Positions 37,089 through 40,836 of a DNA stretch of 64,000 nucleotides are shown piece after piece; the first letter of the stretch is position 1, and each line of letters starts with the position of its first letter. Made by a program: the position numbers and the translations under genes. This DNA comes from Escherichia coli. Lineage in GTDB: Bacteria; Pseudomonadota; Gammaproteobacteria; Enterobacterales; Enterobacteriaceae. The notes beneath the pieces are model-generated. The model ran no database searches. It had not been told where the DNA came from and saw only the letters and a program-made list of their open reading frames with translations. Location: the NCBI RefSeq assembly GCF_003019035.1, contig NZ_CP027447.1; one strand, 5' to 3'.

Positions 37089-38913
<1,825 letters not shown>

Positions 38914-39055
38914 AGATTAGAAATCCTTTTGAAAGCGCATTGTTATGAGTTTACGCATATGGATTCATCTGGCAAATAAAAACGTGGGAAAAGCACTGGT
39001 CAGCGTCAGGGGCGGGGGTATAATGACCATTCTGTTGTTGCATAGAGTAGTTAAC

Positions 39056-39229
39056 ATGAAGCGGAGTAGAACGGAAGTGGGGCGCTGGCGCATGCAGCGT
39101 CAGGCTAGCCGACGTAAATCGCGTTGGCTTGAGGGGCAGTCGCGCCGAAATATGCGTATCCACAGCATCAGGAAGTGCATTCTAAACAAACAGCGTAACT
39201 CGTTATTGTTTGCGATCTACAATATCTAA
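39056..39229 (+). CDS. yciY: small basic protein YciY (57 aa)
   Basis: ATG at 39056 within ORF track 38945..39229; product MKRSRTEVGRWRMQRQASRRKSRWLEGQSRRNMRIHSIRKCILNKQRNSLLFAIYNI; located between cls and kch as the annotated yciY in E. coli. Confidence 0.5.
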   Translation: MKRSRTEVGRWRMQRQASRRKSRWLEGQSRRNMRIHSIRKCILNKQRNSLLFAIYNI

Positions 39230-39283
39230 ATGTACTGGGCACCATTGCGGTGCCCAATAAGTTTACTTTTCCGTCTTTAAACT

Positions 39284-40537
39284 CTATTTTTGCGCCGATT
39301 CTTTACTTTCAGCTTTCGTTTCTTGTTCATCGTTATCGCTGAAAATGCCATGACCGGAGTTCAACAACATTGAAACGAGCATATCATTATTAATCTCTTC
39401 ACCATTTAAAACTCGCGCCAGAATTTCGCTGCCAAACAGTTGTGGTGAGAGAATAATATCCGGATGTACCATCTTAATCTTATTCAGGTTTTTGCTATCA
39501 CTGACGGCGAGAACTGTTTTGACATCACTGCTCATATCTTTTGCTGAGAGTACAACAAACGCGTTATCTGCATCGTTATCACTCAGCGCCAGAATGGCCC
39601 GGCAACGATCGATTCCCGCTTTCTTTAACACTGAACTGTCATTACTGTCACCGGGGATAACATCGGCGTTATCGCCTAAGCGTTGCTCAAGTTGCTTGAT
39701 ATCATCTTCAGGCAAGTTGCTGATAACCGTTACGTTTTGTCCGCGTTGATTCAGTTGCAGAATCGTATTGATGGCGAGAATCGAATGTCCGCAAACAATA
39801 AAATGATCTTTACGATGCATTGTATGATTGTTTCCTTTTACAAGTTTGTTGAATCCCCCGCGGATAAGCGGACCAAAAATTGAGGTCATAGAGGTGGCAA
39901 AAACGGTAATGCCGGAAATAATGACCGAAATAGTGAACAATCGTGCTGATTCAGAAACAGGGACAATATCGCCATAGCCGACGGTTGACATGGTTTCTAT
40001 CGAAAAATAGAACGCGGTCATCAAACTTTCTATTCGCGGATTAAAACCTTCGCTTAAATAAAGCGCACCGTAGGTGGAGTAAAACAGTAACGTCGTGAAA
40101 CTAATAAATGCGAAAATTGTCCCGGCTGCGGCGCTACTGTGGGAGAAGTCTTTGCGCAGTATCAGCAAAAACACCAGCGTAAAAATGCAAAATCCAATAC
40201 TAAATTTCAGCCAGGGATAAAAATGCAGAGTGTAAATTAGCGCTATCAACAACAAAATGATACTGATTGCCCATGCGAGCTTTGCCCGGAACAGTAAGCC
40301 AATGGAGTTCAGGACAAGAAATACGCCGAGCATAAATAGTGGGGCGTTTGCCAGCAAGGAGAGATCCAGCTCTGAAAATGCTTTGATATGGAAAATATCA
40401 AGCAAATTGACTGACATACCATAGATTGTTTTAAAAATAAGCAATCCATTTAAAAAGACGGCCAGCGCGAGAATGTCGTGCCGTAGGGTCACCCATAACT
40501 TTGTTGCTGTTTGTTTGAATGTAGTCCAGTGACTCAC
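39284..40537 (-). CDS. kch: voltage-gated K+ channel Kch (with RCK domain)
   Basis: ORF track 39284..40555 trimmed to GTG 40537 (417 aa); K+ selectivity filter TVGYGD and C-terminal RCK/TrkA domain. Confidence 0.92.
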   Translation of the reverse strand: MSHWTTFKQTATKLWVTLRHDILALAVFLNGLLIFKTIYGMSVNLLDIFHIKAFSELDLSLLANAPLFMLGVFLVLNSIGLLFRAKLAWAISIILLLIALIYTLHFYPWLKFSIGFCIFTLVFLLILRKDFSHSSAAAGTIFAFISFTTLLFYSTYGALYLSEGFNPRIESLMTAFYFSIETMSTVGYGDIVPVSESARLFTISVIISGITVFATSMTSIFGPLIRGGFNKLVKGNNHTMHRKDHFIVCGHSILAINTILQLNQRGQNVTVISNLPEDDIKQLEQRLGDNADVIPGDSNDSSVLKKAGIDRCRAILALSDNDADNAFVVLSAKDMSSDVKTVLAVSDSKNLNKIKMVHPDIILSPQLFGSEILARVLNGEEINNDMLVSMLLNSGHGIFSDNDEQETKAESKESAQK

Positions 40538-40836
40538 TGATACCTCTGTAACCACAATTTTGTTTAATTATCTCAACGTGCACATTTTCTGAACATACAT
40601 GCAGCGCGTGAATGTGTTAAACAATAGTAGATGACTTTATCCGCAGTAATCAAAGGTTTTGAGTGAGCAACTCTGCGTCAGGAAAGGGCATTTTCCTGAA
40701 TATGTTCACATCATATAAAGAAATACAGATAAAGTTATTATCTGCTTGTGGTGGTGAATGCACTGACCGACCTATAAGGAAAGGCCAAACAAGAACACGG
40801 TTGCAAAAACCGTGCCCTTAAATATTGAATTTCTAT

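Follow-up and report, generated by a model that had tools for sequence, protein, structure and literature searches.

yciY of Escherichia coli: a translated, strongly conserved gene for a small arginine-rich protein encoded next to cardiolipin synthase

The subject of this article is YciY, a very small and very basic protein of Escherichia coli whose gene occupies a gap of 370 nt between cls and kch. The window, by which we mean the whole 64,000-nt stretch of E. coli DNA that was analyzed (contig NZ_CP027447.1), has the gene order oppF - yciU(-) - cls(-) - yciY(+) - kch(-) - yciI(-) - tonB(+), and the features that matter for what follows are collected in Table 1. An earlier, sequence-only reading of this DNA had put yciY between cls and kch, correctly, and had described these two neighbors as convergent genes, which they are not. 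Both lie on the minus strand and are therefore co-directional: yciY diverges from the one and converges with the other. The kch reading frame, taken mechanically, reaches a GTG at 40555 (423 aa), whereas the RefSeq protein has 417 aa and a start equivalent to 40537. A match to the Rfam family CRISPR-DR35 inside kch (E 0.13, below the gathering score) is a chance hit.

Table 1. Features of the yciU–cls–yciY–kch region, in window coordinates
Feature	Position	Strand	Details
yciU	37089-37418	-	109 aa, pI 4.05, 30 D/E; HI1450 family dsDNA mimic
cls (clsA), cardiolipin synthase	37453-38913	-	Divergent neighbor of yciY, 142 nt apart in E. coli
Predicted cls promoter	38948-38975	-	-35 TTGCCA 38975-38970; 16-bp spacer; -10 TAAACT 38953-38948; consensus scan 9/12
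Predicted sigma-70 promoter of yciY	38997-39024	+	-35 TGGTCA 38997-39002; 16-bp spacer; -10 TATAAT 39019-39024; consensus scan 10/12
Weak Shine-Dalgarno-like AGAGT	39044-39048	+	GAG at -11 to -9; conserved (A)GAG(T/C) block in the intergenic alignment
yciY coding sequence	39056-39229	+	57 codons including ATG 39056, then TAA 39227-39229
Hairpin, likely terminator	39236-39256		T-GGGCACC / ATTGC loop / GGTGCCC-A; 7 nt past the yciY stop
kch	39284-40537	-	Convergent with yciY

The open reading frame, its strand and its translation, all given in the sequence-only reading, were reproduced exactly, and the name attached to them is right. RefSeq carries the label 'yciY: YciY family protein' at this locus, among the matches listed for complete E. 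coli genomes, and the product matches NCBIfam model NF033701 with 109.8 bits against a cutoff of 30, residues 1–55 lying on profile positions 1–55 of 56. The Pfam family PF26518 (YciY) is precomputed for all YciY homologues in the protein database. The window's reading frame is the E. coli founding member of this family (NF033701/PF26518), with a full-length match to the model, the same length and the same position adjoining cls; we see no difference between the two. A 401-nt region around the gene was found in 5422 of 5426 complete E. coli genomes, most of the query being covered in 5421. The protein was also called extremely basic, and so it is: 13 arginines and 4 lysines (17/57, or 30% basic residues) stand beside 2 glutamates, for a net charge of +15 and a pI of 12.0.

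None of this makes yciY a novel gene: earlier work had annotated it, located its start codon and shown by experiment that it is translated. It belongs to the E. coli small proteins of proven existence, and our analysis leaves the current understanding of it unchanged. In line with the sequence-only reading, the literature searched contains no functional study: yciY is discussed only in a ribosome-profiling paper and is named once as a cloning landmark, neither of them concerned with function. We consider it a good, cheap target for functional work.

The sequence-only reading had left the start codon uncertain, a caution that is now outdated. Nakahigashi et al. 2016 observed a TetRP initiation peak exactly at the yciY ATG (K-12 coordinate 1306812), with a TetRP signal of 192.4, a CmRP signal of 4.17 and a ratio of 46 (PMC4909307). 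Their chromosomal C-terminal yciY-Venus fusion (IVP3), which they used as the positive control, gave expression in both LB and minimal medium (PMC4909307). Together with an ATG that is invariant in 80 of 80 species, these results fix the start at the ATG listed in Table 1. The ribosome-binding site is feeble, with a reported free energy of only -3.0 (PMC4909307). Two longer forms can be drawn on paper, one of 94 aa from an ATG at 38945 and one of 68 aa from an ATG at 39023. Across the 80 loci, the in-frame sequence upstream is not conserved, neither are the two alternative starts, and in 11 species a stop codon lies one to three codons upstream of the accepted ATG; the extensions are therefore not real. 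Both upstream ATGs would also sit at or before the predicted transcription start site.

What lies upstream of the gene looks like a promoter of its own. The perfect -10 hexamer TATAAT is found upstream of yciY in all 80 species, and in 77 it precedes the ATG by 29–33 nt; the -35 element, at 16-bp spacing, reads TGGTNN across species; and the transcription start site is predicted near 39031. The promoter forms a GC island, its spacer having 69% GC and its discriminator (the six bases after the -10) 78% in an intergenic region of 35–37% GC, although E. coli's own discriminator, GACCAT, has only 50%. In its GC-rich spacer and discriminator, its 16-bp spacing and its perfect -10, the site resembles the promoters of the translation apparatus that are controlled by growth rate and ppGpp, which may point to a similar mode of control here. 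The predicted cls promoter stands back-to-back with that of yciY, the -35 hexamers being about 21 bp apart, and no overlap is predicted between the two transcripts. It too is conserved, as is an A/T tract just upstream of its predicted -35; across the 80 species, conservation exceeds 90% in the blocks CATCTGGCAAATAAAAA and GAGTTTACGCAT.

Downstream, the short hairpin that follows the stop codon is a likely intrinsic terminator. The GCACC...GGTGC stem is identical in 77 of 80 species, around 44 different loops, and at least five T residues occur in the next 10 nt in 50 of the 77; a conserved stem followed by a T-rich tract is what points to termination. RNAfold gives -17.5 kcal/mol over positions 39227–39296, with a median z of -2.7 against shuffles. 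A simple terminator scan of the window did not call the hairpin, because the T-tract of E. coli is weak. It would probably serve yciY and, in Escherichia, the convergent kch as well. The stem is fixed in the 80 species despite nearly saturated synonymous sites nearby (pS 0.63), and no compensatory pair changes were seen; the sole explanation we can offer is that constraint on a short bidirectional terminator may hold it. Brenneria and Morganella have unrelated hairpins in its place. In sum, yciY is an independently transcribed and translated gene with its own predicted promoter, a weak Shine-Dalgarno sequence and a hairpin terminator.

Length by itself does not lift this reading frame above chance, as the window contains many spurious ORFs of 50–70 aa. 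Its conservation does. Our sample comprised 80 species of Enterobacteriaceae in about 25 genera, each represented by a single locus, and was collected with ClsA as the bait; since YciY itself was not the bait, the sample is not biased toward genomes that keep the ORF. The frame is intact in all 80 species and exactly 57 aa long in 75. Substitution is codon-periodic, with entropies of 0.34, 0.23 and 1.08 at codon positions 1, 2 and 3 and with 22, 21 and 49 variable sites, respectively, of 53. The pooled Nei-Gojobori pN/pS is 0.16 and the median dN/dS 0.075, whereas the five other frames over the gene have pN/pS values of 0.32–2.4 and are interrupted by stops. The relatively low value of 0.32 in frame -2 is the known artefact of shared wobble positions. 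Constraint is concentrated in codons 1–40 (pN/pS 0.10), where pN is 0.06 and third positions are nearly saturated (pS 0.63), and it relaxes in the C-terminal tail (0.32); cls, over the same set of 80 species, scores 0.055. Of the 13 sites that vary within Escherichia, 12 are synonymous.

Such conservation is beyond chance, and yciY is almost certainly a real, functional protein-coding gene. Nor is it a marginal one: throughout a bacterial order, the constraint on it is as tight as on a housekeeping enzyme. Ribosome profiling and codon-level selection analysis had been proposed as checks on the sequence-only reading, which would have fallen had there been neither ribosome occupancy nor purifying selection; both are present. 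Antisense ORFs at 38951-39163 and 38965-39093 (-) were discarded, being broken by stops in 40–76 of 78 sequences. Conservation as a by-product of the cls promoter was likewise set aside: the predicted cls core promoter and its start site lie outside the ORF, and the substitutions are codon-periodic.

To the constraint on the protein a second one is added. Codons 2–10 (39059-39085) show depressed synonymous variation (relative entropy 0.35 versus 0.67–0.78 elsewhere), the rare arginine codon AGA is kept at codon 5 (39068-39070) in 76 of 80 species, and AGA or AGG at codon 39 (39170-39172) in 73 of 80. This suggests constraint at the level of the mRNA or of codon choice, for which accessibility of the initiation region, dependence on tRNA-Arg(UCU) or a pairing site are suggested as candidate sources.

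Beyond the Enterobacteriaceae, the family does not reach far. A profile search of 1.84 billion representative proteins yielded only 39 YciY clusters, and every named member belongs to the Enterobacterales: Enterobacteriaceae, Morganellaceae (Morganella, Providencia), Pectobacteriaceae (Brenneria, Pectobacterium), Erwinia and Rouxiella. A search for phage homologues found none. There are 22 'plasmid' records that carry yciY, but all bar two are non-mobilizable and some are megabases in size, so that they look like pieces of chromosome, probably mislabelled, and a plasmid origin was rejected. The gene is thus a core gene, confined to one order and passed on vertically. One entry named 'YciY family protein, partial [Listeria monocytogenes]' comes from a 252-nt contig and is probably contamination.

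The position of the gene is as stable as its sequence on one side only. yciY adjoins cls, divergently and at about 142 nt, in all 80 of the ClsA-baited loci, and the same divergent pairing, with a cardiolipin synthase of 486 aa, recurs in Brenneria, Morganella and a metagenomic locus (L083). The neighbor on the other side varies: an MCP gene in Brenneria, yciI in the metagenomic locus and others in Morganella. Only Escherichia has kch as the neighbor (6 of 6 loci, against 0 of 74 in other genera). In the loci examined, insertions recur on the 3' side of yciY, and the promoter side that it shares with cls is never interrupted. cls is therefore the only constant partner of yciY, which is suggestive of a functional tie and not proof of one, because the whole oppF-yciU-cls-yciY-yciI-tonB block is syntenic.

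What kind of protein is it? AlphaFold2, given a 38-sequence alignment, predicts one continuous helix from residue 5 to residue 56 with a pLDDT of 91, although a high pLDDT for an isolated helix is not structural proof. The helix has no greasy side. Its hydrophobic moment falls within the distribution of shuffled sequences (p 0.28 for the whole helix and 0.47 for the best 18-mer), its GRAVY is -1.14 and its most hydrophobic 18-residue window has a mean of 0.04, which leaves neither a transmembrane segment nor a strongly amphipathic helix. A periodicity scan gave no peak at 100–103 degrees (the 3.6-residue or heptad repeat); the strongest was at 135 degrees. Twenty-two positions are invariant among the 38 aligned members: M1, S4, R5, E7, V8, R10, W11, R12, M13, R15, Q16, R20, R23, W24, L25, E26, Q28, S29, R30, R31, I35 and R39. 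They occupy all six 60-degree sectors of the helix. Ten arginines are present in 38 of 38 members, and a further five basic positions are at least 90% conserved; these arginines lie on every face of the helix, together with two invariant tryptophans. Arginine codons 5 and 39 are mostly AGA or AGG, a single transition away from lysine, and they are never lysine in 80 species. It is the identity of arginine, not just its charge, that is preserved. Comparisons of YciY with Pfam, PHROGs and PADLOC matched no family (the copy of Pfam-A searched seems to be without the PF26518 model), and a Foldseek search of the PDB with the single-helix model returned 0 matches, a result that is uninformative.

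The reading that we rank first, tentatively and with somewhat more doubt than belief, is that YciY works by binding RNA. A helix conserved all round, without a core and insistent on arginine is the pattern of the arginine-rich-motif RNA binders, such as Rev and lambda N, and of the extensions of ribosomal proteins, and it is for this pattern that RNA binding comes first. The sequence-only reading had remarked on a resemblance to nucleic-acid-binding or ribosome-associated small proteins, which fits the composition and the single arginine-rich helix predicted here. The proposal runs as follows. YciY would be an arginine-rich alpha-helix of about 50 residues with no hydrophobic face and, for that reason, would neither fold nor enter a membrane by itself; it would probably become ordered only on a polyanionic partner. 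Given the invariant arginines on every face, the two invariant tryptophans and the codons 5 and 39 that never turn to lysine, a structured RNA would be the most likely partner, be it rRNA, a specific transcript or the ribosome, and YciY would bind it much as arginine-rich-motif peptides bind theirs. The helix would fold onto a polyanion that envelops it, through contacts specific to guanidinium groups. The stringent-type features of the promoter would fit a role linked to translation.

How far do the likenesses go? With the arginine-rich-motif peptides (the N proteins of lambda and P22, HIV Rev and Tat), YciY shares a helical, arginine-rich segment that also contains Gln and Trp; residues 9-GRWRMQRQASRRKSRW-24 may be set beside the Rev segment TRQARRNRRRRWRERQR. 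It shares, too, the lack of a hydrophobic core, folding expected only on the partner and conservation of arginine as such: by sequence, then, YciY has the arginine-rich predicted helix, the missing core and the specifically conserved arginines of that class. There is, however, no sequence homology, and those peptides are motifs of 10–20 residues inside larger proteins, whereas YciY is a free-standing protein of 57 aa with a conserved basic core of about 35 residues. The small ribosomal and ribosome-associated proteins bL34, bS21, Sra/bS22 and RMF are alike in size (45–71 aa), in pI (above 11) and in being helical or extended, and the features of the yciY promoter are reminiscent of those of the translation apparatus. 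YciY differs from them in having no ribosomal Pfam homology, in its absence from the solved ribosome structures of the PDB and in its restriction to one bacterial order.

Several searches bear directly on a ribosomal role. A sequence profile search of the PDB found no YciY chain in any entry, the many E. coli ribosome structures included, which argues against a stoichiometric ribosomal component. The same search offered a lead to uS14m (E 0.07–0.8) that came to nothing, since hhalign against E. coli S14 gave a probability of 0.2% and the similarity is compositional. Ribosomal Pfam families searched against all 38 YciY members gave no match. Taken together, these results mean that YciY is not a recognisable or stoichiometric ribosomal protein. 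More generally, the literature and database searches found neither an experiment nor a homology that links YciY to RNA. The only conserved hairpin near the gene is its terminator, the loop of which is not conserved. Lastly, we count against RNA binding the conserved linkage to cls, which directs attention to the membrane instead.

That linkage is the starting point for a different account, in which YciY would be a peripheral peptide, held electrostatically at the membrane, that binds cardiolipin/phosphatidylglycerol (CL/PG) or ClsA and tunes cardiolipin synthesis from the shared promoter region. A peptide of charge +15 would be drawn to anionic lipid; the two genes are adjacent in every one of the 80 species as well as in Brenneria, Morganella and the metagenomic locus, while the gene on the other side changes; and their back-to-back promoters are both conserved. 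There is even a precedent for a cls gene with a helper, as ClsC reportedly needs its neighbor YmdB (Tan et al. 2012 PNAS). YmdB with ClsC, and small proteins of the AcrZ, MgtS and CydX types, have in common with YciY that they are small proteins conserved beside the gene for a membrane enzyme, but such genes are usually co-oriented or operonic and their products mostly hydrophobic and single-pass; yciY is divergent, and its product is hydrophilic, with no TM segment. Against the cardiolipin account, too, are an amphipathic moment no greater than that of shuffled sequences and a best 18-residue hydrophobic mean of only 0.04. Arginine rather than lysine on all faces is not something that generic binding of lipid headgroups requires, and adjacency within a syntenic oppF-tonB block may be merely inherited. 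We think this account unlikely, if worth keeping in mind. Rather less likely is that YciY binds DNA, as a small nucleoid-associated factor or as a local regulator of the cls and yciY promoters, perhaps being the natural ligand of the dsDNA mimic YciU. An extremely basic helix would suit such a role, and the acidic YciU (pI 4.05, 30 D/E) is encoded beside cls in 85 of 88 loci examined; its family member HI1450 has a Kd of 3 uM for HU (PMC3643605). Yet the helix lacks the heptad or 3.6-residue hydrophobic periodicity of a zipper-type, bZIP-like dimer, and it is rich in arginine rather than lysine. An AlphaFold2 model of YciU and YciY joined by a linker, from a paired alignment (a weak test, run with no control), reached a pTM of 0.55 and a mean pLDDT of 71 while confidence in the N terminus of YciY fell, and so does not support a complex; moreover, the YciU family reaches Haemophilus, where YciY is absent.

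The two accounts that remain dispense with an ordinary peptide function or make it a harmful one, and we find both of them highly improbable. If the ORF merely doubled as cls regulatory DNA, as an antisense or regulatory RNA, or as a leader peptide that senses arginine codons, the depressed synonymous variation in codons 2–10 and the rare AGA/AGG codons kept at 5 and 39 would have a ready explanation; but pS far exceeds pN in codons 1–40, the reverse of conservation at the DNA or RNA level. In addition, the predicted cls core promoter and start site lie upstream, over 80 nt from the ORF, and face the other way, no Rfam family matches at the yciY locus, and a leader peptide would want a co-oriented gene downstream, where there is a terminator hairpin after the stop and then a convergent gene. 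That YciY is a cationic peptide with toxic or antimicrobial-like action, say an orphan toxin whose expression is held down, would agree with a short, highly cationic product that contains Arg and Trp and with its weak Shine-Dalgarno sequence (RBS free energy -3.0). YciY, however, lacks the kind of helix, hydrophobic or amphipathic, that type I toxins typically have; neither an antisense sRNA nor an antitoxin is annotated or was detected at the locus; and yciY is a vertically inherited core gene that is absent from phages and genuine plasmids and draws no PADLOC match.

RNA binding, the reading we prefer, can be joined to the position of the gene, at the cost of a good deal of probability. YciY would then be an Enterobacterales-specific, arginine-rich helix that binds RNA or the ribosome, made from a promoter sensitive to growth rate and ppGpp that abuts the cls promoter back-to-back, and it would couple the state of translation to the synthesis of anionic lipid; in a variant, it would form a basic/acidic pair with YciU. 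We regard this combined scheme as very unlikely to be right as it stands. As a plain observation, cls is flanked by two extremes of charge: YciY, with its net +15, on one side and YciU, with its pI of 4.05, on the other.
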